Assembly: GCA_964455165.1 (NCBI GenBank) | Contig: CAYVXP010000001.1 | Span: 1-30,477 of the forward strand | DNA from: an uncultured Gammaproteobacteria bacterium | Lineage (GTDB): Bacteria; Patescibacteriota; Patescibacteriia; UBA1558; GWA2-36-10 | Reading direction: 5' to 3' | Length of the DNA stretch: 30,477 nt | Part shown: piece after piece, positions 431-25,057 of the stretch | Numbering within the stretch: the first letter of the stretch is position 1 | How the letters are laid out: each line of letters starts with the position of its first letter | Notes under the pieces: generated by a model | The model's input: the letters and a program-made list of their open reading frames with translations, nothing else | Database searches by the model: none | What the model was told of the DNA's origin: nothing | Program-made: the position numbers and the translations under genes

Positions 431-1747
431 TTATTTAGTTTTTTTAGATTTAGCGGGTTTCTTTTCTTTTTTGACCTTTGTCTCCTCCCCGCCAGAGGCG
501 GGTCCGCCTTTGGCGGATACTTCATCCGTTTCTTCAACACTCTCTTCTTGTGTCTCCTCTACTTCTTCGGCTTTGTCAGCTGTGCTTAGAGGAGCGTGGT
601 TACTGGGGTTTTTATCAGGGTTACTAGGAGATATGATATCAATTTTCCAGCCAGTCAACTTGGCAGCTAGACGAGCATTTTGCCCACCGCGACCAATAGC
701 TAGTGATAGTTGATCATCATTGACCATGACTTTGGCGGTTTTACTTTCTTCGTCTACTTCTATTTTGCCGATGCTAGCTGGACTCAAAGAGTTGGCAATA
801 AAAGTTTTTGGATCACTATTCCAATGAATGATATCTATTTTTTCACCACCGAGCTCACTGATGACGGTTTGTACTCTGGCACCCCTTTGACCAACACATG
901 AGCCAATTGGGTCGATATTTTCGTCAGCGGTAAAGACAGCTATTTTGGTACGAGCACCAGCTTCACGAGCAATGGATTTTATCTCTACTGTACCAGCAGC
1001 AATTTCTGGTACTTCGGTAGCGAATAATTCTTTGACAATTTCTGGATGAGTGCGGGATAGGATGATTTCTGGTCCTTTGCTACCCATGCGGACAGCGGAG
1101 ATATAAAAGTTTAAGCGAGTACCAATATTGTAGCCTTCACTACGAATTTGTTCTTCGGGGGCCAAGACTCCAGTAGCTTGACCAAGGTCTACGATAAAGC
1201 GACGACCTTCTCGTCTTTGGATAGTACCTATAGTCAATTGACCTTCTTTATCTTTATATTCACTGAAGATATGATCTCTTTCAGCTTCACGTAGACGTTG
1301 GATGATGACTTGTTTGGCAGTCTGAGCAGCCATGCGACCATACTCTTCTGGTACTGGTAGTTTGGTTTCTATGACATCACCAATCTTGTAGTCACTGTTG
1401 ATAGTTTGAGCTTCAGCAATCATGATTTCAGCGCGAGGATTAAATTTCTTAATCATCTCTTCTTCACTGATTTCTTCGCCAGCTTCTTTGCGGGCATGCA
1501 TTTCTTCTAGTTGCTTTTCTTGTTCTTCTAGGTCAACATTTTCGACGACAGTTTTTACGTCAAAAACTGCTGTTTGGCCATTGTCAGCATTGAAGACTAC
1601 TTTGATGTTTTGATTAGGGGTACCATACTCCTTGCGGTAGGCAGCAGCTAGAGCCGCCTCGATGGCACCAATGACTGCCTCAGTGGACAGGTTTTTTTCT
1701 TGGCAAACCTGCTTGATAGCAGCGAGCATTGTGTTATTACTCGACAT
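431..1747 (-). CDS. nusA: Transcription termination/antitermination factor NusA with an acidic/Lys-rich C-terminal tail
   Basis: Motifs YGRMAAQTAKQVIIQRLREAER, AREAGARTKIAV, IDPIGSCVGQRGARV, QLSLAIGRGGQNARLAAKLTGWKIDI. Confidence 0.98.
   Translation of the reverse strand: MSSNNTMLAAIKQVCQEKNLSTEAVIGAIEAALAAAYRKEYGTPNQNIKVVFNADNGQTAVFDVKTVVENVDLEEQEKQLEEMHARKEAGEEISEEEMIKKFNPRAEIMIAEAQTINSDYKIGDVIETKLPVPEEYGRMAAQTAKQVIIQRLREAERDHIFSEYKDKEGQLTIGTIQRREGRRFIVDLGQATGVLAPEEQIRSEGYNIGTRLNFYISAVRMGSKGPEIILSRTHPEIVKELFATEVPEIAAGTVEIKSIAREAGARTKIAVFTADENIDPIGSCVGQRGARVQTVISELGGEKIDIIHWNSDPKTFIANSLSPASIGKIEVDEESKTAKVMVNDDQLSLAIGRGGQNARLAAKLTGWKIDIISPSNPDKNPSNHAPLSTADKAEEVEETQEESVEETDEVSAKGGPASGGEETKVKKEKKPAKSKKTK
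488..517. repeat. 30-bp double-hairpin element (CCCGCC-AGA-GGCGGG + TCCGCC-TTT-GGCGGA) in frame within nusA
   Basis: Two adjacent perfect 6-bp-stem palindromes; they encode SAKGGPASGG (NusA codons 411-420). Confidence 0.85.
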
Positions 1748-1766
1748 TTTATGGATTTTAATTTTT

Positions 1767-1797
1767 AAAAAAAACTAGTTTATAATTAAACTAGCTT
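1767..1797 (-). terminator. Weak intrinsic terminator/attenuator in the nusA 5' leader
   Basis: Minus strand CTAGTTTA-ATTA-TAAACTAG stem followed by a T8 tract, between the promoter and the nusA ATG. Confidence 0.65.
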
Positions 1798-1806
1798 AAT
1801 AAACAT

Positions 1807-1835
1807 ATTCTACGGTATTTTGCGTTATTAGTCAA
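1807..1835 (-). promoter_or_regulatory. sigma70-type promoter for nusA
   Basis: Minus strand TTGACT-17 nt-TAGAAT; the -35 box overlaps the yraN stop codon. Confidence 0.7.
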
Positions 1836-2170
1836 TAGTTATCTATGGGAAACCTTTTTATTTTAGTCTGTTTATTTTTTAAATAAATGACGATTATTTC
1901 TAAATACCAATCAGCTTGTGGAGCAAATAAGTGACATGTTCGACGCATTTTTTCAATTTTATTTTTATTGATCATTTCTTCAGCAAAGCCATATGTATAG
2001 TTAGTCCTAGTTTTTACCTCGATGCCATAAAATATCTTATTTTTGTATAAGACTAAATCAAGCTCGCCATAGCGAGTGAAATAATTTTTGGCTAATAAAA
2101 TAAAACCATGATTAAGATAATATTTTAAAGCAATTTTTTCACCGATAGATCCTAGATATTTTTTAGACAT
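1832..2170 (-). CDS. yraN: YraN family (UPF0102) nuclease-like protein
   Basis: G..GE..A..Y....G..LL..NY....GELDLV......IEVKTR pattern; 112 aa. Confidence 0.9.
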   Translation of the reverse strand: MSKKYLGSIGEKIALKYYLNHGFILLAKNYFTRYGELDLVLYKNKIFYGIEVKTRTNYTYGFAEEMINKNKIEKMRRTCHLFAPQADWYLEIIVIYLKNKQTKIKRFPIDNY

Positions 2171-2171
2171 A

Positions 2172-2195
2172 AAAAACAGACCAAGGCCTGTTTTT
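2172..2195 (-). terminator. Intrinsic terminator-like hairpin directly upstream of the yraN start
   Basis: AAAAACAG.CC-AA-GG.CTGTTTTT inverted repeat. Confidence 0.5.
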
Positions 2196-2211
2196 ATATT
2201 TTATTTGAAAA

Positions 2212-2622
2212 TTATTTTTTAGCCTTAGGCAACCATTTGTTGAATTCGGCATTTTCTTCTTTTTTCTTTTTGATTTTTGGAATAGTGATCAAATAGTAAA
2301 ATAGTAGATAAATAGCCCAGACCAATATACCTATAGCCCAAAGCAAAAGCCACAAACGAGAGCCTAAATACATGGCTCTGGTTTCTCGAAATAGTATAAA
2401 TAGTAAACCGACGATACTGCTAGTCCAGCCAAAGCCAATCAATTTTTTGTAAAAAGATTTTTTGTAGCCAGGATTTTTGGCTAATTGGCGTTGAGCCAAA
2501 ATAGCTAGCACAATAGCCAAGACACAAAAACCATAAAGAGCCACTCGAAAAGGAGTAGATAAGGCTTCAAAGGTATAGGCACGGAATAGGTAAGACCAGT
2601 CCAATAGTTTTGTTAAATCCAT
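2212..2622 (-). CDS. Hypothetical membrane protein (about 3-4 TM, basic C-terminus)
   Basis: 136-aa ORF with hydrophobic stretches, same orientation as its neighbours. Confidence 0.8.
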   Translation of the reverse strand: MDLTKLLDWSYLFRAYTFEALSTPFRVALYGFCVLAIVLAILAQRQLAKNPGYKKSFYKKLIGFGWTSSIVGLLFILFRETRAMYLGSRLWLLLWAIGILVWAIYLLFYYLITIPKIKKKKEENAEFNKWLPKAKK

Positions 2623-2708
2623 AATGTTTATTTATATGAGATATGTTAGATAATTTACGGAATAAAGTCAAATATAAAAGCGCCTGATTATTGGCGCTAG
2701 TATTTTTA

Positions 2709-3314
2709 TTATTTTTTGCTAAAAATCAAACCAAAGTGGTATGGGCCAGCCTTGAACTGCTGGACTAGGTCCAAATCCATTTGCGAGGCTAGACTCATGA
2801 TTTCTTCTGGTTTGGCTAGTCTTTCTTTAGAGGGTCCAAATGACAAATCATTGTCAGCCCAGTCAATCACTAGTAGTTTAGCACCTTTTTTTAATAAGCG
2901 AGTGGCTTCAGACATTATTTCAAAATGTTTTTCGGACTGATATAGGACATTGACCAAAATAGCGGAGTCCAGACTTTCACTATTTATTTTGGTAGCACCA
3001 ATGAGCTCTAGATTGCTCCAGACAGTTTTTATGTTATTGAGTCCGGACAGTCTAGCTTTTGATTCTAGTTCAGATAAAATATTTTTTACTACATCGACAG
3101 CATAGACTTGGCCCTGATCACCGACGAGGCGAGCGGCTTGCATCAAAAATAATCCGCCACCAGCACCTAGGTCACCGACCATATCTCCTTTTTTGACTTG
3201 CAATAATTCACTGAGTATTTTACCAGCGTCCATTAGTTCACTCTTGCCACCGACATTTGGAGTAGTCAAGGCAGAGTTGTTACTTGGTGTAATTTGTGTA
3301 GTTATTTCATTCAT
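2709..3314 (-). CDS. Class I SAM-dependent methyltransferase (UbiE-like)
   Basis: VGDLGAGGG motif I, VYAVD motif II, LLVIDW. Confidence 0.88.
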   Translation of the reverse strand: MNEITTQITPSNNSALTTPNVGGKSELMDAGKILSELLQVKKGDMVGDLGAGGGLFLMQAARLVGDQGQVYAVDVVKNILSELESKARLSGLNNIKTVWSNLELIGATKINSESLDSAILVNVLYQSEKHFEIMSEATRLLKKGAKLLVIDWADNDLSFGPSKERLAKPEEIMSLASQMDLDLVQQFKAGPYHFGLIFSKK

Positions 3315-3363
3315 ATTTTTGTATATTTATTATACCAAAAAATATAAGTATCCGCCACCAGCA

Positions 3364-3392
3364 TTGACTTTTGTCAAAGATCAAGTTATAAT
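3364..3392 (+). promoter_or_regulatory. sigma70-type promoter for the tRNA-Glu locus
   Basis: TTGACT(3364-3369)-17 nt-TATAAT(3387-3392). Confidence 0.75.
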
Positions 3393-3449
3393 CTGCCTTG
3401 TATTTTATATATTTGGCCCTATCGTCTAATGGTTAGGACACCAGGTTTT

Positions 3450-3480
3450 TCCCGCGTAGCGGGACCCCGCTCTGCGGTGG
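3450..3480. repeat. 31-bp double-hairpin element (TCCCGC-GTA-GCGGGA + CCCCGC-TCT-GCGGTGG) in the anticodon of the outer tRNA copy
   Basis: First palindrome perfect, second with one extra T; same 15+15 layout as the nusA element. Confidence 0.8.
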
Positions 3481-3544
3481 CATCCTCATGGCCAATAAGT
3501 TGTTTGAAAATTAATAATAATTCATCTCGGCTTGGTGACCTGAC

Positions 3545-3619
3545 GGCCCTATCGTCTAATGGTTAGGACACCAGGTTTTCATCCTGGCAATCGGGGTTCG
3601 ATTCCCCGTGGGGTCACCA
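3545..3619 (+). tRNA. tRNA-Glu (anticodon TTC), intact, CCA encoded
   Basis: Acceptor GGCCCTA/TGGGGTC, anticodon arm CCAGG-TTTTCAT-CCTGG, T arm CGGGG-TTCGATT-CCCCG, 3' ACCA; 75 nt. Confidence 0.97.
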
Positions 3620-3679
3620 AGCCGGCAAGAATTAATAACAGTTTGGCAATCGGGGTTCGATTCCCCGTGGGGTCACCAG

Positions 3680-3710
3680 AAAAAAATCAACCAAAATAGG
3701 TTGTTTTTTT
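3680..3710 (+). terminator. Intrinsic terminator after the tRNA locus
   Basis: CAACC-AAAATA-GGTTG followed by T7. Confidence 0.65.
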
Positions 3711-3735
3711 GTTTTAGGCTAGTCAAGCTTTTTCT

Positions 3736-3764
3736 TTGACATTTAGCTTCAAAGATGCTATTAT
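3736..3764 (+). promoter_or_regulatory. sigma70-type promoter of the cold-shock gene, giving a 5' UTR of about 125 nt
   Basis: TTGACA(3736-3741)-17 nt-TATTAT(3759-3764) with an extended -10 TG. Confidence 0.75.
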
Positions 3765-3894
3765 CATGGACAAACGATTGTCTTGGTGCGCTTTATTCAT
3801 AAAGCCTGCCAAAACAGTAGTTTATGCATTCACTAGCGGAAATATAGTCGAATTTCTAGCTACCTATGCTTTAATTCACTTTATTTCTAAAATT

Positions 3895-4095
3895 ATGCAA
3901 GGCAAAATCAAGAAATTAGTAAGCGATAAAAATTTTGGTTTCATTACTCCAGAAGATGGCGGAAAAGATTTATTTTTTCATGCCAACGAATTGAGTGGTG
4001 TTTCATTCGATCAATTACACGAAGGTGACGATGTCACTTTTGACATGAGCGATACACCAAAAGGACCAGCAGCTGTTAAAGTTAGCTTAGTCTAA
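3895..4095 (+). CDS. cspA: Cold-shock protein (CSD), 66 aa
   Basis: MQGKIKKLVSDKNFGFITPEDGGKDLFFHANEL with RNP1/RNP2 motifs. The true start is ATG 3895, not the 3736 start in the ORF track. Confidence 0.93.
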   Translation: MQGKIKKLVSDKNFGFITPEDGGKDLFFHANELSGVSFDQLHEGDDVTFDMSDTPKGPAAVKVSLV

Positions 4096-4120
4096 TACTT
4101 CTTAGATAATAAGAAATTTA

Positions 4121-4149
4121 AAACAACCCTCGCATTGCGAGGGTTGTTT
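4121..4149. terminator. Bidirectional terminator between csp and the convergent secreted-protein gene
   Basis: Perfect 13-bp stem AAACAACCCTCGC-ATT-GCGAGGGTTGTTT. Confidence 0.8.
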
Positions 4150-4156
4150 ATTTATT

Positions 4157-5512
4157 TTAGCGATTAATATAATTTTGGTAATCCTGACTATTTTGCCACT
4201 GAGCAAAGGGGATGCTAGGATGCACAGTTTTGCCACCAAAGCGGATAGACTGTTTGATAGCTTGTTCAGAGTAACCACTGTAGGTGTAGGCATTGACTAG
4301 GATCGCCCAATCTCTGGCGCTGACACTATAAGTACCTAGATTATTTTTCAACCAATTTTTTAGATAAGCTGATTGTTTAGCTTCCAAGGTATTGGTATTT
4401 TTTAGGCGAAGTAATATTTCAGAAATGGTGCGTCCATAACCATAAGGATTATATTTGTGAGCAACTTCTTCTTGATCAGTGTAGCCGTCATAGTCACTAT
4501 CTAGTGTAGAGCTGTAGATTTTTTCGCCAGCTACTTGTGGTACAGTGATGACAGCTCTTTGCTTTGGCAAAGTCATGAAGCTATGACCAGTGGCTTCAAT
4601 TTTTTTATTATAAATACCTTTTTCTATGACTATTTTATAGTAATAAATAGTATTTGGTGTCAGGTTGGTCAAAAAAATCTCATGTTCATATTTTGGTGTA
4701 GCGCTGACAGCAACTTTTTTATTTAAACTAGTAGATTTCGTGCCATAATAAATAGTACTGTTGGCTACGTAGTTGCTGGACCAACTAATCAAAGCAGTAG
4801 TATCGCTGATTCTATTGGGATCCAACTGTAGTGGTCTGATATTATTGATGGCAAGATTTGAGCCATTCTGTGTGCCAGAAGAAGTATTGAAAACAATGTA
4901 TTTTTTTTCACCACTATTTTTATCTTTATCAATGGCAGTTATTTCTGCTGTGTATCTAGTATCAGCTGCCAGCTTGTAAATATACAAGACATGATCAGTA
5001 GTGTAGGCACTTTGATTAATAGTTGATTTACGAGTAGCATCGACAACACTATAAACTATTGTACTTCTGGTGACTTCATCAGTGGTCCAGGAAATAGCTA
5101 CAGCGTTGCCAGTACTTTGTAGTAATTTATAATTTGAGATAGTCGGCTTATGGGTATCGATCATGCCCTTAGTGGAAAAAGTTTGGATATAAGTTTCGTA
5201 GCGACGAGCACCCTGATCTTCAGCGATTATTTTATAATAATAATTTTTATCTTTTACTAAACCGGTCAAAACACTTTGATGGCCATAATCAAAAGCGCCA
5301 TAACCCATACTTAGGTTTAGGTCGTCGGGGTTTAAGCCATAATAGATATAAGCTTTACTAGGCTCAGTAGTATTCCAAGACATATCGACCATACCATTGC
5401 GAAGGTTGGAGATTTTGATATTAGAAATAATAACATCAGCCCTGACAAATAGGGGACTTAATAAAGATAGTAATAAGGCACTTATTACGATGATTTTATT
5501 GATGTATTTCAT
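4157..5512 (-). CDS. Secreted protein with three fibronectin-III/purple-acid-phosphatase-N-terminal-like repeats, a DSDxDG Ca-binding-like motif and an uncharacterised C-terminal domain
   Basis: N-terminal signal peptide; repeats W(N/T/S)T.E.....I.YG...H...L..L.....Y.Y.I; LDSDYDGYTDQEE. Confidence 0.8.
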   Translation of the reverse strand: MKYINKIIVISALLLSLLSPLFVRADVIISNIKISNLRNGMVDMSWNTTEPSKAYIYYGLNPDDLNLSMGYGAFDYGHQSVLTGLVKDKNYYYKIIAEDQGARRYETYIQTFSTKGMIDTHKPTISNYKLLQSTGNAVAISWTTDEVTRSTIVYSVVDATRKSTINQSAYTTDHVLYIYKLAADTRYTAEITAIDKDKNSGEKKYIVFNTSSGTQNGSNLAINNIRPLQLDPNRISDTTALISWSSNYVANSTIYYGTKSTSLNKKVAVSATPKYEHEIFLTNLTPNTIYYYKIVIEKGIYNKKIEATGHSFMTLPKQRAVITVPQVAGEKIYSSTLDSDYDGYTDQEEVAHKYNPYGYGRTISEILLRLKNTNTLEAKQSAYLKNWLKNNLGTYSVSARDWAILVNAYTYSGYSEQAIKQSIRFGGKTVHPSIPFAQWQNSQDYQNYINR

Positions 5513-5639
5513 GATTCTTCAAATTAATTAATATATAATTATAGCATATATACGATGTTCTGTCAATGTTAAGGAAAAGAGCAATTTATGTTACTATTTT
5601 TTATTATTTTTAGAGTGAGTATTTATAATACCGATCTCG

Positions 5640-5676
5640 CCCCGCGAAGTCCCGCCTTAGCGGGAAGGGGGCGGGG
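5640..5676. repeat. Nested GC-rich palindrome (CCCCGC ... TCCCGC-CTTA-GCGGGA ... GCGGGG), intergenic
   Basis: Inner stem 5650-5665 lies inside outer stem 5640-5645/5671-5676, in otherwise AT-rich DNA. Confidence 0.75.
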
Positions 5677-5721
5677 TCAATATTAAAAAAGACCTAATAG
5701 TAGGCCTTTTCTGGCGTTGTT

Positions 5722-6369
5722 TTAGCTAGTTTTCTGTATTTTCAAGTAATGGATCTTCTTCTTGTTTGCTAGGTGTTTTTCTTCAAAATAGGTTTTTATT
5801 TTAAGCTCTGGCTTCAAGCTTTTTTGTTTATAGATATCAACTATTTTTTTACTGATTTTAAAGTTCTCTTCTGTGGCGGTTTTTACAGTAAAATTGAATA
5901 ATTTTTTATCGTCAGTTTTGAGATTTATAAATCCCTTAGCTTTTAATATTTTTTTATATTTTTTTAAAAATTGGACAGACACTAGTCTTTTTTTAGCTTG
6001 TTTTTTTCGTGGGTAAGGATCAGGAAAAGTGATCCATATTTCGTCTATTGATTGCTCAGGAAAAATCTTTTCTAAAAAGTCAGCTTGGAAACGTACGAAT
6101 AATAAATTATTTAATTTTTTTGTCTGAGCAATTTTTGCACCATGCCACAATCTTTCGCCTTGGATATCTAGGGCTAGGTATTTGTATGCAGGATTTTTTT
6201 CAGCTAGAGCCAAGCTATACTCACCCTTGCCGCAACCCAATTCTAAAATAATCTTATCATCGTGCTTGATAAATTGTTTTAGTTTTTTATTAAAATTTTT
6301 ATCACCGAATTCTAAGACATTGGTAAAAGATTTTAGTTCGGCGAATTTCTTGAGTTTTTGGCGGGACAT
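5722..6369 (-). CDS. trmB: tRNA (guanine-N7)-methyltransferase
   Basis: LELGCGKGE, IDEIWITFPDPYPRKKQAKKRL, LKTD. Confidence 0.95.
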   Translation of the reverse strand: MSRQKLKKFAELKSFTNVLEFGDKNFNKKLKQFIKHDDKIILELGCGKGEYSLALAEKNPAYKYLALDIQGERLWHGAKIAQTKKLNNLLFVRFQADFLEKIFPEQSIDEIWITFPDPYPRKKQAKKRLVSVQFLKKYKKILKAKGFINLKTDDKKLFNFTVKTATEENFKISKKIVDIYKQKSLKPELKIKTYFEEKHLANKKKIHYLKIQKTS

Positions 6370-6456
6370 ATTTATAGCTTATAGCATTTTTACAGAAAAG
6401 AAAACAGTAGTCCACAAGATTGACAGAGCGGTCTTTTTATCATAAAATATTAAATC

Positions 6457-6465
6457 TGCTATAAT
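6457..6465 (+). promoter_or_regulatory. Extended -10 promoter placing the transcription start at the tsaD ATG (leaderless)
   Basis: TGC-TATAAT, then 6 nt, then ATG 6472. Confidence 0.55.
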
Positions 6466-6471
6466 AGATAT

Positions 6472-7518
6472 ATGCGCATTTTAGCAATTGAAACATCCTG
6501 TGATGAGACTGCCTTGGCTGTCATTGGTGAGCGAAGGGGTTTTTTGTATTTAGAAAAAGATTCTGTCTATTCTCAAGTCAATATTCACAAAAAATATGGC
6601 GGTGTAGTGCCAGAGCTAGCCTCTCGCAAGCACCTAGAAACTATCATGCCATTACTTGACCATACTCTGGGTAAAAATAAGCTAAAAAATATTGACTATA
6701 TTGCCTTTACCCAAGGACCAGGCTTGGTGACTTCTTTAGTTTTGGGAGTGGCAACCGCCAAAGCCCTAAGTCTAGCAAGTAATAAGCCACTAGTGCCTAT
6801 CAATCATCTGGAGGGACACATATATTCCAATTGGCTTACTCACCCAGAATTGCAGACTAACAAAATAAATGTTTTTCCTTGTATTGTTTTAGTGGTTTCT
6901 GGTGGACACACCGAGTTGATCCTGATGACTGATCATGGCAAATATGAACTGATCGGTAAAACACTTGATGATGCTGTAGGTGAAGCCTTTGATAAGGTAG
7001 CTAAACTTTTGAATCTTGGCTATCCTGGTGGGCCGATCGTCAGTAAATTGGCTGCCATGGGCAATGCTCAAAAATATGATTTTCCACGACCAATGATCAA
7101 TAGTCATGATTTTGATTTTAGTCTTTCTGGACTCAAAACTTCTATCTTGTATTTTATGGAAAAGAAGCAAAAAATAAATCAACAAGATGTAGCAGATATT
7201 TGTGCCGGTTTTCAACTAGCGGTCACGGATGTTTTGGTCAAAAAGACTTTTTTGGCCGCTAAAAAATATGAAGCTAAGGCCATAATGCTTGCCGGTGGAG
7301 TCTCAGCTAATACTTTTTTGAAAAAGATCTTAAAATATAAAGCTGATAAACTAGCTCTACCTTTTTTTGCACCAGATATCAAGTTCACTGGCGACAATGC
7401 TGCTATGATTGGAGCGGCCGCTTTCTATAGATTAAAAAATAAACGAGCTAGCATCTTGCGTGGGGAAAATATCAGTAAATTAGAGCCACAGGCCAACTGG
7501 CAATTAGTTGAAAAGTAG
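6472..7518 (+). CDS. tsaD: tRNA N6-threonylcarbamoyladenosine (t6A) synthesis protein TsaD
   Basis: ILAIETSCDET, YGGVVPELASRKH, HLEGH, VSGGHT, TLDDAVGEAFDKVAK, GDNAAMIG. Confidence 0.98.
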   Translation: MRILAIETSCDETALAVIGERRGFLYLEKDSVYSQVNIHKKYGGVVPELASRKHLETIMPLLDHTLGKNKLKNIDYIAFTQGPGLVTSLVLGVATAKALSLASNKPLVPINHLEGHIYSNWLTHPELQTNKINVFPCIVLVVSGGHTELILMTDHGKYELIGKTLDDAVGEAFDKVAKLLNLGYPGGPIVSKLAAMGNAQKYDFPRPMINSHDFDFSLSGLKTSILYFMEKKQKINQQDVADICAGFQLAVTDVLVKKTFLAAKKYEAKAIMLAGGVSANTFLKKILKYKADKLALPFFAPDIKFTGDNAAMIGAAAFYRLKNKRASILRGENISKLEPQANWQLVEK

Positions 7519-7608
7519 TTTTTGAGTAATTCGGTGCAGTATTGTATAATTAAGCAATTGTCCTGGATTAGTTTACGCTAGATTTCTCCAAACAATAAAA
7601 TAATAAAA

Positions 7609-8031
7609 ATGAAAGAATATACATCAAAAACTCAAGGTGAGACAGAAAAAATCGCCCAAGATATTGTGGAACAACTTCAGGGTGGCGAGGTTTTGGCTTT
7701 GGTAGGAAACTTGGGTGCTGGCAAGACAGTTTTTGTAAAAGGCTTGGCCAAGGCGCTGGGTATCGAAGACAATATCACTAGCCCTACTTTTGTTTTGATG
7801 AAAATATATCAGACCAAGCATGCTCGAGTAAAAAGACTAGTGCATGTCGATTGCTATCGCTTGGAAAAAGCTGAGGATCTAGAAGAAATTGGTTTAGCTG
7901 ATTATCTTCATGATCCAGAAAATATTGTTGTGATCGAATGGGCTGATCGAGTAATTAGTTTGCCAAAAAATACTATCAATATTAATATTGAATATATCAA
8001 TAATCAAGAAAGACACGTGGTCATAAAATAA
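7609..8031 (+). CDS. tsaE: t6A ATPase TsaE
   Basis: GNLGAGKT P-loop, ITSPTF, HVDCYRL, IEWA. Confidence 0.96.
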   Translation: MKEYTSKTQGETEKIAQDIVEQLQGGEVLALVGNLGAGKTVFVKGLAKALGIEDNITSPTFVLMKIYQTKHARVKRLVHVDCYRLEKAEDLEEIGLADYLHDPENIVVIEWADRVISLPKNTININIEYINNQERHVVIK

Positions 8032-8034
8032 TAT

Positions 8035-10593: not shown

Positions 10594-10594
10594 T

Positions 10595-16126: not shown

Positions 16127-16185
16127 CCCGCTTCGCCGTTTTTTTGCGAGGCGAGCCCGCTTCGACTGGCTAAAAGCGAGGCGAG
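16127..16185. repeat. Tandem pair of about 30-bp units CCCGCTTCG-N10/11-GCGAGGCGAG between rpsA and ftsH
   Basis: Unit 1 16127-16155 (29 nt) and unit 2 16156-16185 (30 nt) have identical ends and different middles. Confidence 0.8.
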
Positions 16186-17376: not shown

Positions 17377-17640
17377 TTAATTATTAAATGGTTAACCTAC
17401 AGCTTGCGCCATAAGTTCTTGAAAGGTCAGCAAATATTAGCCATTCAAGATGCTTGTTAATAAAATAAGTTGCTTCATATTAACATAAACTGTTAAAAAA
17501 ATCAAGGGGTCTAGGCAAGCACCAAAAAGAGGCTTTTTTGTCTGAAAAAAGGCTTATTTTTAGCCATTTTTCGAGTTTACTTTTATCAAAAATCATGTTA
17601 AAATTATGAGGATTTAATAAGCTTAAATTGGTAAAAATCT

Positions 17641-18246
17641 ATGTATATTTCATGGTCCGGCTATAACTATTTTAAGATCCAAAATAGCCAGCACAGCATT
17701 GCTTTGAATCCCTATTCATTAGACAAAAATTTTAAATTCGGCAAAATCAAAGGCGATATTGCCATTTTTACTGATCCACAAAAAGTAGCTGATTGTAAAC
17801 TAGACGAAGGAGTGATGTTGATCGACAGTGCTGGTGAATATGAAGCCAAGGATATTTTTGTCTACGGACGCCAAGCCAATAATAATCTCATCTATCTTAT
17901 TATTTTTGAAGACGTACGCATTGCCTTTTTGGGTGAGTACGACGGACAAGCTTTGACTGACAAAGATTTGGAGCTGGTATCTGGTGCAGATATTTTGATT
18001 TTGCCAGTTGGTGGCACTGATATGGCCAATGCCAAGCAAGCCAATAGTGTCATCGGCCAGATCGAGCCACGTCTCGTCATACCGAGTGCCTACGAAGTAA
18101 AAGAATTAAAAAATAACGCTGACTCTCTGGATATATTTGTCAAAGAGTTTGGTGTCAAAGTAGAGGAATGTGACAAATTCAAAGTTACTAAGAAAGATTT
18201 GCCACAAGATGACGTGAAGTTGGTCGTGCTAAAACCACAATTATGA
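17641..18246 (+). CDS. MBL-fold (Lactamase_B_3-like) protein lacking recognisable metal ligands
   Basis: Family scaffold (I.W.G...F.I, GEYE, DILILPVGG, IEPR.VIP) is present but His/Asp ligands are substituted. Confidence 0.75.
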   Translation: MYISWSGYNYFKIQNSQHSIALNPYSLDKNFKFGKIKGDIAIFTDPQKVADCKLDEGVMLIDSAGEYEAKDIFVYGRQANNNLIYLIIFEDVRIAFLGEYDGQALTDKDLELVSGADILILPVGGTDMANAKQANSVIGQIEPRLVIPSAYEVKELKNNADSLDIFVKEFGVKVEECDKFKVTKKDLPQDDVKLVVLKPQL

Positions 18247-18599
18247 TAATTTTGCACAATAACAAAAATAAAATTTACTTAACATTTTTTTTGTCAGCGC
18301 TAGTCTTTATTGGACTGCTTATAGCTTGGGGGAAATTCGGTATTTCTTCACAAGCCTCTTCCAAAACAAAATCAGAAGTATCTGTCCAGTCTGGTGAAGC
18401 AAGTAGTTTGCTCAAAGATATCCAAAATACCGTAGAGCTCGGTCAAATCCAGTGGAATGAAGTACAAGAAAAAATAGCCAAGACTCAAAAACAACAAGAG
18501 TTGCTCGCAGCCGCCCGTGAATATTTAAATAACAAAGCATCAACAACGCCGACTAGTACGATAGTTTCGACTAGTACTGCTACTACAAGTATTAAATAG
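18243..18599 (+). CDS. Hypothetical single-TM protein with coiled-coil-like and Thr-rich C-terminus
   Basis: 118-aa ORF overlapping the upstream stop (ATGA); N-terminal hydrophobic helix. Confidence 0.7.
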   Translation: MIILHNNKNKIYLTFFLSALVFIGLLIAWGKFGISSQASSKTKSEVSVQSGEASSLLKDIQNTVELGQIQWNEVQEKIAKTQKQQELLAAAREYLNNKASTTPTSTIVSTSTATTSIK

Positions 18600-18603
18600 T
18601 TTT

Positions 18604-20424
18604 ATGCCAAAAGTAAAATCAAATTCTAACAAGGATAAAAATTTAGAGGAAAAAAATTTGACCATTCCAATCGATGATAATAATCGTGGTCACGTCGAAG
18701 AGCTTTCGCTAGCTGAAGAAATGCAGAGTTCCTATCTAGACTATGCCATGAGTGTCATAGTCTCTCGTGCTTTGCCTGATGTCAGAGATGGTTTGAAGCC
18801 AGTGCATCGCAGGATCTTGTATGCCATGTGGAGTGTTGGCTTGAGACACAATGTAAAATTCAGAAAGTCAGCGACCGTAGTCGGAGAAGTGATGGGTAAA
18901 TATCATCCTCATGGTGACTCGGCTATCTATGACACCATGGCTCGTATGGCTCAGGATTTTGCTATGCGCTATACCTTGGTCAATGGTCAAGGAAACTTCG
19001 GATCTATGGACGGTGATAGACCAGCGGCCATGCGTTATACTGAGGCCAAACTAGAAGCTTTAGCTGAGGAGTTATTATTTGATATTGATAAAAATACTGT
19101 TGACTTCATCCCCAACTACGATGGTTCTCACCAAGAGCCAAAAGTCTTGCCAGCCAAGCTACCAAACCTTTTGCTCAATGGTGCTACTGGTATTGCCGTC
19201 GGTATGTCGACTGCCATCCCACCACACAATCTAGGTGAGTTGATCGATGCTACTACTACTATCATCGACAATCCTGATGCCACAGTCGACGATCTATTGG
19301 AATTCGTCAAAGGACCAGACTACCCAACTGGCGGCGTGATCTACAGCGCCGAAGACATCAAGACTGTCTATGCCACTGGTCGCGGCGGTATCGTCTGTCG
19401 TGGTGAAGCGGAAATTACTGAGACCAAAGCTGGTCAATATCAGATCATCATCACTTCTATTCCTTTCCAAGTAAACAAAGCGACACTATTAGAAAAAATT
19501 GCCCTCCTAGTCAAAGATAAAAAAATTGATGGCATCAGAGATTTACGCGATGAGTCAGATCGTGATGGTGTCCGCGTAGTGATCGAGCTCAAGAAGGAAG
19601 CTTATCCAAAAAAAGTTTTAAATAATCTCTACAAACATACTCAACTCCAAGAAACTTTTCATGTAAACATGTTGGCTTTGATCGATGGCTTACAACCTCG
19701 TGTTTTGACTTTGAAAAATATCTTGGAAGAATATATCAAGCATCGTCAAGTAGTAGTCGTACGTCGTACGCAATTTGATTTGGATAAAGCTAAAGAGCGA
19801 GCACATATTTTGGAAGGTTTGAACATCGCTCTCGATAAGATCGATATGGTCATCAAGACTATCCGCGCTTCCAAAGATAAAGAAGTAGCCAAAGTCAATT
19901 TGATGACTAAATTTAAGTTATCTGAAAGACAAGCTTTAGCTATCTTAGAAATGCGTTTGCAGAACTTGGCTAACCTCGAGAGACTGAAGATTGAACAAGA
20001 GTTGAAAGATAAATTAAAACTTATCAAAGAGTTGATGGCTATTTTAAATAGTAAGTCTAGAGTCTTATCAATCATCAAAGATGAACTCAAAGATTTGCGT
20101 GATCGCTTTGCTGATGAGCGCCGTACTCGTGTCGTGAAGTCCGCCGTCAACAAGATGAACACCGAAGACTTGATTCCAAACGAATCCACTGTCATTACTT
20201 TGACTCACGATGGCTACATCAAACGTTTGTCACCAGAGATTTTTAAGACCCAAGGACGCGGTGGCAAGGGAGTGATCGGCCTGACGACCAAAGAGCAAGA
20301 CGAAGGACAGTTATTCTTGGAGACCAACACTCATGCTGATTTGATGTTTTTTACCTCAAAAGGCAGAGTTTTTCAGCTGAAGTGCCACCAATGTCTAGAA
20401 CCTCCAAGGGTCAAAATATTGTGA
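18604..20424 (+). CDS. gyrA: DNA gyrase subunit A, N-terminal part (breakage-reunion domain plus start of the CTD), frameshifted near 20381
   Basis: YLDYAMSVIVSRALPDVRDGLKPVHRR, YHPHGD, AAMRYTE, GyrA-box QGRGGKG. After GRVFQLK the frame becomes non-homologous and stops. Confidence 0.95.
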   Translation: MPKVKSNSNKDKNLEEKNLTIPIDDNNRGHVEELSLAEEMQSSYLDYAMSVIVSRALPDVRDGLKPVHRRILYAMWSVGLRHNVKFRKSATVVGEVMGKYHPHGDSAIYDTMARMAQDFAMRYTLVNGQGNFGSMDGDRPAAMRYTEAKLEALAEELLFDIDKNTVDFIPNYDGSHQEPKVLPAKLPNLLLNGATGIAVGMSTAIPPHNLGELIDATTTIIDNPDATVDDLLEFVKGPDYPTGGVIYSAEDIKTVYATGRGGIVCRGEAEITETKAGQYQIIITSIPFQVNKATLLEKIALLVKDKKIDGIRDLRDESDRDGVRVVIELKKEAYPKKVLNNLYKHTQLQETFHVNMLALIDGLQPRVLTLKNILEEYIKHRQVVVVRRTQFDLDKAKERAHILEGLNIALDKIDMVIKTIRASKDKEVAKVNLMTKFKLSERQALAILEMRLQNLANLERLKIEQELKDKLKLIKELMAILNSKSRVLSIIKDELKDLRDRFADERRTRVVKSAVNKMNTEDLIPNESTVITLTHDGYIKRLSPEIFKTQGRGGKGVIGLTTKEQDEGQLFLETNTHADLMFFTSKGRVFQLKCHQCLEPPRVKIL

Positions 20425-21110
20425 ATTTCCTACAGCTATCACCAGATGAGAAGATATCATCTATTTTGCAGAGCGAAGATTTCACAGCTTTCAAATATTT
20501 TGTCATGGTCACTCGTCTGGGTATCATCAAAAAAGTAGCTTTGGATCAATTTAATAATGTCCGTCGCTCTGGTCTGATTGCTATAAAGCTCAAAGGCGAC
20601 GATGCCTTGAATTGGGTCCAGCCATCTACGGGCAAAGACGAGATTATACTCGTGACAGCCAATGGTCAATCTATTCGCTTCAAAGAAAAAGATGTGCGTG
20701 ATATGGGACGCAACGCCGCTGGTGTGCGCTCAGTCCGCCTCAAGAAAAATGATGAGGTAGTTGGCTTTGATATCATTGCCGAAGGTAAGGTAGGCAAAGA
20801 AGAGCAATTATTTGTCATCATGTCTCATGGCTTTGGCAAGCGCACCGGACTATCAGCTTACAAGGTGCAGTCTCGTGGCGGCTCAGGTATCAAGACCGCT
20901 CAGATTAGTGCCAAGACCGGTACTATTGTCGGCGCTCGTATCATCAGCTCAAGAGTAGAAAGTGAAGATATCATTATCATCTCCAAAAAAGGCCAAGTCA
21001 TTAGACTGCCGATAAAAGCCGTTAGTATTCTTGGACGCGCTACTCAAGGTGTGAGATTGATGCGCTTCAAAGATGCTGACGACAAAGTATCAAACATCAC
21101 TTTTATATAA
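20382..21110 (+). CDS. gyrA: DNA gyrase subunit A, C-terminal beta-pinwheel part in the -1 frame
   Basis: VPPMSRTSKGQNIVNFL, NVRRSGLIAIKL, MGRNAAGVRSVRL, QSRGGSGIK, LGRATQGVRLM. Confidence 0.93.
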   Translation: MPPMSRTSKGQNIVNFLQLSPDEKISSILQSEDFTAFKYFVMVTRLGIIKKVALDQFNNVRRSGLIAIKLKGDDALNWVQPSTGKDEIILVTANGQSIRFKEKDVRDMGRNAAGVRSVRLKKNDEVVGFDIIAEGKVGKEEQLFVIMSHGFGKRTGLSAYKVQSRGGSGIKTAQISAKTGTIVGARIISSRVESEDIIIISKKGQVIRLPIKAVSILGRATQGVRLMRFKDADDKVSNITFI

Positions 21111-21126
21111 TAGTTTTTAAAAAAAT

Positions 21127-22512
21127 ATGTTAAATACCCAAAGGACAAAAATTTCAGATATTATCAAAGATTCTTTTGAGCCAAAAGAAGTGTCTGTCTA
21201 TGGCTGGATCAAAACTGTCCGCTCTAGTAAAAATTTATTTTTCATCGAGCTCAACGATGGTTCTTGTTTTGAGTCCTTGCAACTAGTCTTGGATGCAAGT
21301 TCGGCTAAGTCGGGCTTGGGAGAGGGAGACTTACTCACTGGCGTCTGCATCAGTGCCACTGGTGCTATAGTGTCTTCACCAGCTGTGGGTCAAAAAAAAG
21401 AAATGCAAGTCAAAGATTTGCAAATTGTCGGTCCAGTAGACGCAGAATATCCCATGCAAAAGAAAAGGCATACTATGGAGTTTTTACGCTCCTATCCACA
21501 CCTACGCGCCAAGACCAATACTTTTTATGCCGTCTTCAAGATGCGTTCAAAATTGGCTGCTGCTATACATAATTATTTTCAAAATAAAGATTTTGTCTAT
21601 CTGCATACACCTATCATCACCGTCAATGACTGTGAGGGTGGTAGCGAGGCTTTCCAAGTCACTAGTTTGAATCTGAACGATGTCAAAGACAAAGGCCTAG
21701 ACTATGCTAATGATTTTTTCAAACAGCCAGCCTTTTTGACTGTCAGTGGACAGCTCGAGGCTGAACCTTTTGCTTTGTCACACAATGCTGTCTATACTTT
21801 TGGTCCGACTTTTCGAGCTGATCCATCAGACACACCACGCCATGCGGCTGAGTTTTGGATGATGGAACCAGAAATGGCTTTTTATGATTTTGAAGATTTA
21901 TTAGATTTGATCGAAGACTTTATCAAGAGTGTCACAAGAGAGATCCAGGGTAGCTGTCCAACTGAAATAGAGTTTTTCCAAAAATATATTGAGCCAGATT
22001 TACAAAAGCGTTACGAGGCTATCCTCGATGGTAAATTTGAGCGCGTAGATTTTGCTGAAGTCATCGAGATACTCCAGAAGTCTGGTCAGAAGTTTGAGAA
22101 TCAACCAAAGTGGGGAGAAGATTTATTCATCGAGCATGAGCGCTACTTGGTGGATGAGTATTTCAAAAAACCAGTCCTCGTGACCAACTATCCAGAAAAT
22201 TTTAAATCTTTTTATATGCGCCTCAATGACGATGGTCGTTCAGTGGCTTGCGTCGATTTACTCTTACCAGGTATTGGTGAAGTAGTTGGCGGCTCGCAGA
22301 GAGAGGAACGCTATGATCATCTCAAGAAGCGTATGGAGCAAAAGAAAATGGACCCCAAACTATATGAGTGGTACCTAGAGACTCGTCGCTGGGGCTCAGC
22401 TCCACACTCAGGTTTTGGTCTAGGTTTTGAGCGCTTGGTCATGTATCTGACGGGCATGAAAAATGTCAAAGATGTCATCCCATATCCTCGTGCTGCTCGC
22501 AAAATTTATTAA
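21127..22512 (+). CDS. asnS: Asparagine--tRNA ligase
   Basis: FIELNDGS, YPHLRAKTN, FLTVSGQLEAE, YTFGPTFRADPSDTPRHAAEFWMMEPE, GEVVGGSQRE, PHSGFGLGFER. Confidence 0.96.
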   Translation: MLNTQRTKISDIIKDSFEPKEVSVYGWIKTVRSSKNLFFIELNDGSCFESLQLVLDASSAKSGLGEGDLLTGVCISATGAIVSSPAVGQKKEMQVKDLQIVGPVDAEYPMQKKRHTMEFLRSYPHLRAKTNTFYAVFKMRSKLAAAIHNYFQNKDFVYLHTPIITVNDCEGGSEAFQVTSLNLNDVKDKGLDYANDFFKQPAFLTVSGQLEAEPFALSHNAVYTFGPTFRADPSDTPRHAAEFWMMEPEMAFYDFEDLLDLIEDFIKSVTREIQGSCPTEIEFFQKYIEPDLQKRYEAILDGKFERVDFAEVIEILQKSGQKFENQPKWGEDLFIEHERYLVDEYFKKPVLVTNYPENFKSFYMRLNDDGRSVACVDLLLPGIGEVVGGSQREERYDHLKKRMEQKKMDPKLYEWYLETRRWGSAPHSGFGLGFERLVMYLTGMKNVKDVIPYPRAARKIY

Positions 22513-22533
22513 AAATATTTTATACATTAGCTG

Positions 22534-23547
22534 ATGAGCGAAAGAGTAATATCAGCGGTAGAGCAGAGCTCTGACAAAGTGCTGGATCTGACTTTACGGC
22601 CACAAAATTTGCAGGACTATATCGGCCAGAGTCAAGTCAAGGCCAATCTTGATATTGTCCTGCAGGCTGCTAAGGGTAGGAATGAGCCACTGGATCATGT
22701 CTTACTCTATGGTCCTCCAGGCTTGGGTAAGACTACCCTAGCTCATATCATAGCCCGTGAGATGGGAGCTGGTATCAAGGTCACCTCAGGACCAGCCATC
22801 ACCAAGGCTGGCGATCTGGCGGCTGTGATCACCAATCTCCAACCCGGTGATGTCCTCTTTATCGACGAAATACATCGCCTCAACAAAACCATCGAAGAAA
22901 TACTCTATCCAGCGATGGAGGATTTTGCTTTGGACATCATCCTAGGCAAAGGTCCGTCAGCGCAGATTTTGCGCCTAGACTTACCAAAGTTTACTTTGAT
23001 TGGGGCTACCACTAGGTACAATCTTTTGTCCTCACCGTTGCGTGATAGATTTGGTATGACTTTTCGTCTGGACTTCTATAGTCCCGAGGAGCTATCAGAT
23101 ATTTTGAAGCGCTCCAGTCAAATCCTAGGAGTGCCTATAGTACCAGAAGCAAGACAAGAGATTGCTTCTCGTAGTCGGGCTACTCCACGTATTGCCAATC
23201 GCGTGTTAAAACGCGTACGTGACTATGCTCAGGTCAAAGCTGATGGCAATATCTCACTAGATTTGACTAAAAAATCACTTGATCTCATGGCTATAGACCA
23301 ATACGGATTAGATGATCTAGATCGCAGATTGCTGAAAGTAATAATTGATAACTTCAAAGGCGGACCAGTGGGCCTCAATACTCTAGCCGCTGCTGTCCAA
23401 GAAGAAGCTGGTACTATAGAGGAGATCATCGAGCCCTATCTCATGCAGCTCGGCTTTTTGGCACGCACGGCCAAAGGCCGAGTGGCTACACCTCGGACTT
23501 ATGAATATTTTGGTCTCGCAGTCCCAGAAGATGGGAAGTTGTTTTAG
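22534..23547 (+). CDS. ruvB: Holliday junction branch migration helicase RuvB
   Basis: [48 protein letters not shown]. Confidence 0.98.
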
Positions 23548-23559
23548 ATATTTTTAAAT

Positions 23560-23613
23560 ATGCCAAAATCTCAAATACTTTTTATTCACGGCGTAGTTAT
23601 TTTAATAATATGA
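23560..23613 (+). pseudogene. Possible 17-aa N-terminal remnant of an alpha/beta hydrolase (MPKSQILFIHG...)
   Basis: Manual translation MPKSQILFIHGVVILII*; ILFIHG resembles hydrolase beta-strand 1; the stop overlaps the next ATG (ATGA). Confidence 0.4.
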
Positions 23614-23972
23614 AAAAATTAAACATTTTAAGAATAGTTGTTTTGTTGGCTTTGATAGTTTGGGTTTTGAAAGATAAAGAGTATAAAATTTTGCATCTAA
23701 GTAATTTTTCATTAAGCAACATGGCGGGCGATATTTTTTATCCCGTATTATTTATTTTATTGGGTTTGTTTATCTTATTGTACGCTATATTAGTCAGGCG
23801 TGATGATGGTTTTGCTAAGAAGATAGCCACAGGTACTAGTGAGGGTACCTTATGGAGTAAAATACTGGGAGTCGAAAGAACAGTGAAACTTTATCAATCT
23901 TTGGCCCCATCTTCTATTGTTATCTCAGTTGGAGTTATAATTTTTGGTATAGTATTATTTTTTATTTTATAA
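23610..23972 (+). CDS. Hypothetical membrane protein (about 3 TM)
   Basis: 120-aa hydrophobic ORF, visibly more AT-rich than ruvB. Confidence 0.7.
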   Translation: MKKLNILRIVVLLALIVWVLKDKEYKILHLSNFSLSNMAGDIFYPVLFILLGLFILLYAILVRRDDGFAKKIATGTSEGTLWSKILGVERTVKLYQSLAPSSIVISVGVIIFGIVLFFIL

Positions 23973-23975
23973 AAT

Positions 23976-24410
23976 ATGAAAAAGGGCTTTGATTATACGG
24001 GAGTCAGTATTAGCTACTTTTGTCACGACGGTAAAGGTAATTTTTTAATGGCTAAAAGGTCAAATAATTGTCGGGATGAACATGGTAGATGGGATCAGGG
24101 TGGAGGTGGTTTGGAGTTTGCCGACACGGTGCTAGGAACTTTGAAAAAAGAAATCCAGGAGGAATATTGTACAGATGTTTTGGCTTATGAGTTTTTAGGT
24201 TACCGTGATGTACATCGCGAGCATGAGGGACAAAAAACTCATTGGGTGGCTTTAGATTTTAAAGTATTGGTTGATAGAGAAAAAGTAAAAAATGGAGAGC
24301 CTCATAAATTTAATGATTTAGCTTGGTTTAATTTGGATAATTTACCTGAGCCACTACACTCACAGTTTCTTAATGCTTTGGCACTTTATAAAGATAAGTT
24401 ATTGCAATAA
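23976..24410 (+). CDS. NUDIX hydrolase
   Basis: Nudix-box-like GGGLEFADTVLGTLKKEIQEEY; GEPHKF..L.WF. Confidence 0.9.
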   Translation: MKKGFDYTGVSISYFCHDGKGNFLMAKRSNNCRDEHGRWDQGGGGLEFADTVLGTLKKEIQEEYCTDVLAYEFLGYRDVHREHEGQKTHWVALDFKVLVDREKVKNGEPHKFNDLAWFNLDNLPEPLHSQFLNALALYKDKLLQ

Positions 24411-24421
24411 TTTTTTAATTA

Positions 24422-24961
24422 ATGAAACCCAAATTACTTCTGCACGCTTGTTGCGCGCCTTGCTCAATCTATGTTTTACAAAAATTGTCCGCTGACTATC
24501 AGGTGACAATTTATTTTTACGATCCTAATATTCATCCAAGGGTAGAGTACAACAAGCGTCGTGATGAATTGAAAAAGTATGCCGATAAATTACAACTAGA
24601 TTTTATGGAGGGGCCATATGATAGCGCCCATTGGCTAGAGCGTACTAGAGGCCTAGAAAATGAGCCAGAAAAGGGTCAGCGTTGCGAAGTCTGTTTTGAT
24701 ATCCGCCTGGCCGAATCAGCTCGCTATGCCAAGGAACAGGGCTTTGATTATTGGGCTACTGTCCTATCAATCAGTCCACACAAGAGTGCCGAGCAAATCA
24801 ATAGGATAGGCACAAGGATTGCTGATATTGTGGGCTTGCCATTTATTACCGCTGATTGGAAGAAAAATGATGGCTTCAAAATAGCTAGTCAGATGTCTAA
24901 GGAGGAGAATTTTTATCGACAAGATTATTGTGGGTGTATTTATTCGAAGAATAATAAGTAA
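24422..24961 (+). CDS. queH: Epoxyqueuosine reductase QueH (DUF208)
   Basis: LLHACCAPCS, YDPNIHP, RCEVCF..RL, SPHK, YRQDYCGCIYS. Confidence 0.94.
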   Translation: MKPKLLLHACCAPCSIYVLQKLSADYQVTIYFYDPNIHPRVEYNKRRDELKKYADKLQLDFMEGPYDSAHWLERTRGLENEPEKGQRCEVCFDIRLAESARYAKEQGFDYWATVLSISPHKSAEQINRIGTRIADIVGLPFITADWKKNDGFKIASQMSKEENFYRQDYCGCIYSKNNK

Positions 24962-24963
24962 AC

Positions 24964-25057
24964 TTCTCGACTCTCCCTCTCCGCCTCCGCCAGTGGGCGG
25001 ATGGCGGATCGGGATCGCTCGAAGAAAAAAAGCCTTTTGTTCGAGCGAAGTCGAGAA
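24964..25057. repeat. Nested palindromic element between queH and queA
   Basis: Outer arms TTCTCGACT|TCGCTCGAA and TTCGAGCGAAGTCGAGAA. The left arm is split by a 42-nt insert (24973-25014) that holds TCCGCC.TCCGCC-AGTG-GGCGGA.GGCGGA. Confidence 0.85.

Follow-up and report, generated by a model that had tools for sequence, protein, structure and literature searches.

GC-rich twin hairpins that come and go in a small bacterial genome, and their probable link to tRNA-nested GIY-YIG nucleases

Five GC-rich spots lie in the first 30,477 nucleotides (nt) of contig C1 of G000, the genome of a freshwater bacterium (789 kb in 131 contigs, 37.6% G+C), a stretch here called the window. The original prediction described them as a family of tiny hairpin modules, inserted in a protein gene, a tRNA and intergenic DNA, often as doublets of about 30 nt or nested in one another, and mobilized in trans. 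Each of the five contains the hairpins described, as twin hairpins at 488 and 3450 and as nested hairpins at 5640 and 24964:

488-517, minus strand: family A twin hairpin of 30 nt, CCCGCC-AGA-GGCGGG followed by TCCGCC-TTT-GGCGGA, both 6-bp stems perfect
3450-3480, plus strand: family B twin hairpin of 31 nt, TCCCGC-GTA-GCGGGA followed by CCCCGC-TCT-GCGGTGG
5640-5676, no strand assigned: nested hairpins, TCCCGC-CTTA-GCGGGA within CCCCGC...GGCGGGG
16127-16185, no strand assigned: two tandem units of about 30 nt (CCCGCTTCG...GCGAGGCGAG), 6 nt past the rpsA stop codon and ahead of ftsH, weakly folding
24964-25057, no strand assigned: long hairpin with arms TTCTCGACT|TCGCTCGAA and its complement, ending 8 nt short of queA, -38 kcal/mol

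The module at 488-517 is part of the reading frame of NusA (431-1747, minus strand; identified by its NusA_N and KH_5 domains, gene names being assigned by Pfam throughout), where it falls in the acidic C-terminal tail and is translated as SAKGGPASGG. About 110 extra nt (window 5530-5700), missing from the sister genome G001, have the nested hairpins at 5640-5676 as their right end and lie between the two copies of an imperfect direct repeat of some 17 nt (TCAATGTTAAGGAAAAGA / TCAATATTAAAAAAGA). This long, target-like duplication differs from the exact inserts seen at other sites. Upstream of queA, the left arm of the long hairpin is split by a 42-nt insert that consists of three nested layers (TCCC..GGGA, TCCGCC..GGCGGA and TCCGCC-AGTG-GGCGGA). 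The z-scores for DNA folding are -4.1 at 488-517, -3.0 at 3450-3480, -2.4 at 5640-5676, -1.1 at 16127-16185 and -8.3 at 24964-25057. The spot behind rpsA had been called a looser relative of the others; its tandem, weakly folding units are there and belong to a different family, confined to this one locus. An Rfam search returned a tRNA as its sole match.

Scanning the whole genome for the predicted hairpin pattern against shuffled sequence, a check named beforehand, gives a clear excess: 37 matches in G000, where 40 dinucleotide shuffles average 0.6, and 7 within the window versus 0.015. When the arm order is reversed so that the G-rich arm comes first, the genome yields 3 matches instead of 37, and the 5' position of the C-rich arm is therefore a real property of the modules. 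Generic GC hairpins with a 6-bp stem are likewise enriched (95 versus about 8 expected). Module units are 15-35 nt long, and the following families are distinguished:

Family A: the 30-nt twin hairpin, together with single TCCGCC units
Family B: a twin hairpin of 31-35 nt with a GGTGG end
Family C: a GTCCCGC-nnn-GCGGGAC unit directly behind tRNA 3' ends
SRM-like family: GTCAT-TCCCGC...GCGGGA-ATC, for example at C10:4509, at C73:3874 and downstream of a GIY-YIG gene on contig C64
CCCCCT...AGGGGG-type family: from the G000 hairpin census

Families A and B have one to eight copies per genome. Comparisons were made with 61 relatives from across the order (0.5-1.2 Mb), including six genus-mates; family A occurs in 27 of them and family B in 21, and reversed-pattern controls occur in none. 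Copies that are translated in frame are found in NusA, TGT, SMC, the tail of ribosomal protein L3 (rplC) and the N-terminus of transketolase.

The modules behave as non-autonomous elements that come and go, as evidenced by filled and empty sites in sister genomes, a second comparison named beforehand. Occupancy varies at tgt, smc, nusA and the rpsA spacer. The tgt gene of G000 (contig C21) is interrupted at AATTTT^TATAAA by an insert of exactly 30 nt, and the target is not duplicated; G001 has the orthologous insert in a decayed form with stem-breaking substitutions, and the other 28 relatives are without it. The same protein loop bears unrelated GC hairpin inserts in G002 (L075) and G006 (L076) and is thus either a hot spot or a permissive site. 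In smc (contig C23), the segment SAQGGPAFGG is present in G000 alone among 30 orthologues and is absent even from G001, whose protein is 95% identical. The NusA-tail insert is filled in G000 only and is found in none of four genus-mates. Behind rpsA, a 59-nt presence/absence difference resolves into no unit in G001, one in G004, two in G000 and a diverged element at the same point in G003; the tree favors precise loss in G001 and tandem duplication in G000. The region upstream of queA holds a different set of nested GC hairpins in every genus-mate, and in G001 a second hairpin holds a 16-nt TCCGCC unit in its loop, in place of 7 different bases in G005. Such stacking, also seen at 5640, at 24964 and in the family census, agrees with the original description, as does the preference for existing hairpins as targets: hairpin loops are used, and tRNA loops above all.

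The role of tRNA loops is best seen around the family B module at 3450-3480. Between 3415 and 3678, an intact tRNA-Glu is nested within its own broken copy:

3415-3449, plus strand: outer, displaced 5' half of tRNA-Glu(UUC), nt 1-35, right behind the promoter and 100% identical to the intact tRNA
3481-3544, plus strand: tRNA nt 36-41 (CATCCT) and a 58-nt spacer; a GIY-YIG gene occupies the corresponding position in other genomes
3545-3619, plus strand: intact tRNA-Glu(UUC), the functional inner copy, detected by ARAGORN and by Rfam (62.6 bits) and the only tRNA that both detect there
3645-3678, plus strand: outer 3' half of tRNA-Glu, nt 42-75 with CCA, separated from the inner tRNA by a 25-nt spacer and followed by a terminator

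In the outer copy, the module separates anticodon position 35 from position 36 (GGTTTT^CATCC). The predicted insertion into a tRNA thus holds for the sequence and not for a working tRNA, as the host is the non-functional outer copy. Its 3' piece matches tRNA nt 41-75 at 35 of 35 positions. The 3' part of the 58-nt spacer is the reverse complement of the 3' end of the inner tRNA plus its trailer, so that the inner tRNA is flanked by an inverted repeat and its leader pairs with those two segments. Orthologous loci appear in several states: a plain tRNA in G003, a tRNA with a displaced 3' half in G005, and in both G001 and G002 an outer 5' half that bears variants of the module at 35/36 as well as extra GC hairpins at 9/10, 12/13 and 22/23. 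G001, with its heavily invaded outer copy, is the opposite extreme to the plain tRNA of G003. Partial self-copies lie near 6 of the 26 assembled tRNA genes of G000, and all four family B copies of this genome are within such fragments. In the relatives, 22 of 33 family B copies are at most 400 nt from a tRNA. The sites used are GGTT^CAAAT in the T loop, TTTT^CAT and TTTT^CAAG in the anticodon loop and AGTT^CAG in the D arm.

Other tRNA loci of G000 carry further insertions. A conserved element of about 75-90 nt lies directly past the CCA of four tRNAs or fragments (C15, about 9050; C18:11053-11140; C31, about 780-860; C37, about 2230-2330). It consists of TCGACTC, a hairpin GTCCCGC-nnn-GCGGGAC and a second long hairpin that runs to CAACCA, with a 16-nt TCCGCC unit in the loop of the second hairpin in two copies. 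Two different tRNA-Leu genes (C18:10800-10965, and C31 on the 5' side of tRNA-Leu 923-1009) have in common an insert of about 80 nt past position 12 (ATCTCCGTC...GACTACGAAAATTGGTTCTCAGTTTAGTCTAA...), after which comes a rebuilt 5' end. Only 26 tRNA genes are found in G000 despite a completeness rating of 91.6%, and several modules of G000 and its relatives lie near contig ends; repeat-bearing tRNA loci probably break assemblies. Classical integrase scars were considered as a source of the displaced tRNA fragments, G000 having two tyrosine recombinases, and were rejected, as they leave the exact 30-nt inserts in protein genes unexplained.

The 30-nt twin hairpin is not confined to this lineage. 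When one genome of each prokaryote species was scanned for the exact pattern, family A copies turned up on at least 119 contigs. Carriers among the matches listed include Omnitrophota, Planctomycetota, Kiritimatiellota, Lentisphaerota, Chloroflexota and Acidobacteria, as well as low-GC metagenome-assembled genomes (MAGs) of Gammaproteobacteria, Saccharibacteria and many other groups of the Candidate Phyla Radiation (CPR). The 121 copies in these matches have the consensus T-K-[C CCGCC nnA GGCGGG TCCGCC Tnn GGCGG A]-A-A-A, and their most frequent loop pair is AGA/TTT, as in the NusA copy. The second loop is the exact reverse complement of the first only slightly more often than expected (20 versus 14.4). 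The run of A belongs to the target, because it is present in the empty tgt site. TK^AAA is the reverse complement of the TT^CA used by family B, and the two families therefore appear to share one target rule. Reading frame is also biased among the matches listed. In open reading frames (ORFs) of at least 250 amino acids, 41 of 51 copies are read in the A-x-G-G-[S/P]-A-x-G-G frame, as are 28 of 34 in ORFs of at least 400 amino acids; the bias is most simply read as selection for small flexible residues. Plasmid and phage collections gave no full-length match, and IMG/VR only two doubtful high-GC ones. The genes between inverted doublet pairs in Omnitrophota were examined and set aside as ordinary operon genes.

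When ORFs near the doublet in the 119 listed loci were compared all-against-all, the sole recurrent neighbor was a GIY-YIG protein of about 90-100 amino acids. A profile built from these proteins has 18 matches in the 836 kb of these loci, 13 of them at most 88 nt from a doublet, where about 0.6 would be expected. The arrangement is constant and takes one of two forms. In one, the 5' part of a tRNA is followed by a doublet at the anticodon loop (35/36) or the D loop, a few tRNA bases, the GIY-YIG ORF and an intact tRNA; locus L268, with a tRNA-Glu, a doublet at 35/36 and then the GIY-YIG gene, is an example. In the other, an intact tRNA precedes the GIY-YIG ORF, and a truncated tRNA copy bearing the doublet comes last. 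Relatives of G000 have the tRNA-nested arrangement at tRNA-Gln in G001 and at tRNA-Ser in G007, G009, G035 and G055; the hairpins there belong to family A, to family B or to other GC types. At three loci from other phyla (L255, L256 and L258), the GIY-YIG ORF enters the 5' half of the downstream tRNA-Ser and stops at its TGA anticodon; its last dozen or so codons are therefore tRNA sequence.

Small GIY-YIG genes are multi-copy in 57 of the 61 relatives, and 16 of 30 sampled genes lie between or beside tRNA genes. Their copy number rises with that of A and B modules (Spearman 0.57, with no phylogenetic correction), and neither family occurs in any of the 12 genomes that have one GIY-YIG match or none. 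The tRNA-nested proteins exceed the Pfam GIY-YIG cut-off. G000 has two small stand-alone GIY-YIG genes, C64:849-1133 (between dut and tmk) and C79:1902-2222, both at ordinary intergenic sites. The original observation that no enzyme gene adjoins the modules is accurate for the window and breaks down in relatives and other phyla, in which these modules have a small GIY-YIG gene as their direct neighbor.

Taken together, these observations suggest that the modules are probably gene-less solo hairpin repeats of a widespread type of selfish DNA centered on tiny single-domain GIY-YIG nucleases, and the best-supported reading of the tRNA-Glu locus in the window is a relic of a tRNA-nested cassette without its nuclease gene. 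A full element would comprise a nuclease gene of about 85-100 codons within a tRNA gene, flanked on one side by a rebuilt intact tRNA and on the other by a displaced tRNA fragment, whose anticodon, D or T loop carries the twin hairpin. Twin hairpins of 30-35 nt would also spread alone, added at the DNA level and leaving the target unduplicated. They would prefer 5'-TK^AA(A), or TT^CA on the opposite strand, a sequence that tRNA loops and A/T runs expose. By analogy with the Ssn/NTS system described below, the GIY-YIG nuclease would recognize the hairpin as single-stranded DNA and cut beside it, and host repair or replication may then copy the hairpin into the cut site. Selection would retain the harmless copies, namely those in intergenic DNA, in dead tRNA fragments and in floppy protein segments read in the A-x-G-G-[S/P]-A-x-G-G frame, and old copies would decay or disappear.

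Several points weigh against this explanation. About 89% of the copies from many phyla are solo, with no nuclease gene nearby. No GIY-YIG gene of G000 adjoins a family A or B module; those on C64 and C79 precede other hairpin families, one NTS/SRM-like and the other of the GTCATTGCGAG...CTCGCAATGAC type. A tRNA-nested GIY-YIG copy is likewise absent from the G000 assembly with its 26 tRNAs, and to say that tRNA loci are under-assembled there is an excuse and not evidence. GIY-YIG enzymes cut DNA and do not join it, and the insertion chemistry is one that we infer. The correlation between GIY-YIG genes and modules is uncorrected for general repeat richness as well as for phylogeny. At the rpsA spacer, precise loss is favored over gain. 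The A and B sequences do not match the published SRM consensus, and the solved structures nearest to the tRNA-nested nuclease are those of UPF0213 BH0048 and SLX1.

The original prediction favored a different enzyme, an HUH transposase acting in the manner of repetitive extragenic palindromic (REP) sequences and their associated tyrosine transposases (RAYTs). In this explanation a Y1 transposase would move the hairpins in single-stranded form, the twin being a minimal left and right end. Insertion at a short specific sequence without target duplication is in the style of IS200/IS605, and G000, alone in its genus, has a RAYT-like gene along with several lineage-specific insertions. This gene (C60:3678-4259; L145:1179-1760) adjoins recG and encodes 193 amino acids with HFH and Tyr motifs, scoring 30.9 bits for Pfam Y1_Tnp and 66 bits for NCBIfam REP_Tyr_transpos against a cut-off of 80. 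However, the RAYT-like genes carry palindromes of their own. Most of the 12 in the order, C60 included, are so flanked, usually by the AACCTCGAAGGTT type, which occurs at only three G000 loci (C60, C11 and C70) and is unrelated to families A and B; none of the 12 is flanked by an A or B module. Nor do modules and enzyme co-occur, another check named beforehand: among the 61 relatives, 13 have both, 14 modules only, 13 Y1 only and 21 neither (rho -0.07). The six genus-mates, which carry A and B modules (eight doublets in G004), yielded no Y1 gene, and IS200-type matches are rare in the order, which together speak against a miniature derived from IS200/IS605 (PATE). The hairpins also lack a GTAG or CGTC tag at their foot, their flanks being T-K before and A-A-A after. 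Mobilization by HUH chemistry is thus quite improbable. The RNA-templated route also suggested at the outset finds no counterpart in G000, in which no reverse transcriptase was found. Vsr-like DUF559 cassettes, present in 19 of the 61 relatives, were rejected as the module enzyme. They are flanked by a different hairpin family, the CCCCCT...AGGGGG type (CTCCCCCT...AGGGGGAG), and their correlation with A and B modules is weak (rho 0.29); G000 has no such cassette, its weak match on C8 having a hydrophobic N-terminus and no flanking hairpins.

Alternatively, no dedicated enzyme may be needed, with host template switching, fold-back synthesis and ectopic gene conversion creating the copies and the GIY-YIG genes being fellow travelers in repeat-rich genomes. 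The local inverted repeats that flank inner tRNAs resemble template-switch products, the rpsA unit was duplicated in tandem (one in G004, two in G000), some insertions have flank duplications of 12-41 nt, and most copies are remote from a nuclease gene. Yet host processes do not readily account for a near-invariant 30-nt sequence with a common flank consensus in distant phyla, for an exact 30-nt insert in tgt with no local template, or for the lack of modules in every genome with at most one GIY-YIG match, leaving this explanation a minor chance of being right. The hairpins could instead be functional sites selected by the host, such as terminators, RNA stability or processing signals, or protein-binding sites like the NTS of Neisseria, whose effect on transformation has been measured (PMC11893778). 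Many copies do lie just past stop codons or in larger terminator-like stems, but those inside tgt, smc, nusA and rplC cannot be terminators, and the hairpins are followed by runs of A instead of the T runs of a terminator. The stem-breaking decay of the orthologous tgt copy in G001, the variation of sites between sisters, the lineage-specific set upstream of queA and the small number of copies per genome also speak against such a function, and the chance that function explains the modules is slim. Finally, in favor of an assembly or sequencing artifact, all carriers seen are uncultured MAGs or single-amplified genomes, and the plasmid and phage collections lack a full-length match. Against this stand substituted orthologous copies in independent assemblies (tgt in G000 and G001; L007 and L009), the consistent reading-frame bias, and the occurrence of words from contig C1 in lake, freshwater and groundwater metagenomes, several of the lake ones independent; the probability of an artifact is close to nil.

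A bolder form of the GIY-YIG explanation, which we hold only tentatively, is that the twin hairpin may be the minimal mobile unit of multi-phylum single-strand DNA elements in which a nuclease of about 90 amino acids recognizes the hairpin and cuts TK^AA, including in conserved tRNA loops, and whose full form colonizes and rebuilds tRNA genes with no HUH, DDE or recombinase enzyme.

The nearest known system is that of the Ssn proteins, single-domain GIY-YIG nucleases that bind a cognate NTS/SRM hairpin repeat and cut the adjacent single-stranded DNA (Chenal et al. 2025, PMC11893778). Their repeat-gene-repeat layout is like that of an insertion sequence (IS), and a mobile origin was raised by the authors (PMC11893778). 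The likeness extends to a single-domain GIY-YIG gene linked to a short GC-rich hairpin that is also scattered genome-wide, an IS-like layout of repeat and gene, directional repeats, co-occurrence of nuclease and repeat across genomes, and the SRM-like repeats beside the small GIY-YIG gene on C64 of G000. On the other hand, families A and B are twin hairpins with other stems and no match to the SRM/NTS consensus CGTCATTCCCGCGMAVGCGGGAATCYRG, and they number one to eight per genome compared with hundreds for Ssn/NTS. They are in frame in housekeeping genes and in tRNA fragments, with the nuclease within tRNA genes; neither tRNA nor in-frame copies are mentioned in PMC11893778. Cleavage by Ssn was measured, whereas genes and repeats are here read from sequence. 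The impression that the family lacked any formal description is thus partly overtaken by Ssn/NTS, and the twin hairpin, the in-frame copies and the tRNA-nested layout are undescribed in that report. Literature searches by topic and by sequence and peptide strings found no account of the twin hairpin. What goes beyond the published Ssn/NTS work, and beyond everything else that these searches retrieved, is the twin hairpin itself, its spread over many phyla, the in-frame copies, the TK^AAA rule and the tRNA-nested cassette.

Other systems resemble the modules in part, and the first three named here differ from them in size, enzyme or host. Rickettsia palindromic elements, as summarized in PMC10969869, are also selfish palindromes in frame in essential genes of a reduced genome, where their translation adds a segment to the protein surface; they are about 100-150 bp long and restricted to Rickettsia, whereas the modules are 15-35 nt long, occur in many phyla, prefer defined flanks and are linked to a nuclease gene. 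REP sequences, bacterial interspersed mosaic elements (BIMEs) and REPINs with their RAYT (PMC2817692, PMC3333891) are similar as short GC-rich hairpins, often doublets, that are non-autonomous and accompanied by a single-copy enzyme gene in the genome. They differ in that the cognate-enzyme comparison failed for the modules, which have no GTAG tag and are often intragenic. The GC clusters of yeast mitochondria and the double-hairpin elements of fungal mitochondria (PMC4478555) are tiny, GC-rich, mobile and nesting modules in AT-rich genomes, sometimes in frame and with no known enzyme. These elements are organellar, however, unrelated in sequence, and have no tRNA-nested nuclease cassette. Phage T4 SegB is a free-standing GIY-YIG homing endonuclease encoded in tRNA gene clusters. 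Here too a GIY-YIG gene lies among tRNA genes that are its likely cleavage target, but the Seg proteins are larger, with a DNA-binding domain, and come with no hairpin repeat and no partial tRNA duplication.

The finding is real and more general than originally thought. If the proposed mechanism is true, the 30-nt unit would be among the smallest known mobile DNA and common to CPR bacteria, Omnitrophota, Planctomycetota, Chloroflexota and others. It would add ten-residue loops to essential proteins and remodel tRNA loci, and the newly described hairpin-guided GIY-YIG single-strand nucleases would acquire a role in genomes, that of driving selfish repeats. Nucleases and hairpins with matching specificities may then serve as tools for single-stranded DNA, and the same elements would explain why contigs recurrently break, why odd "hypothetical" peptides appear and why tRNA genes are missed in MAGs.

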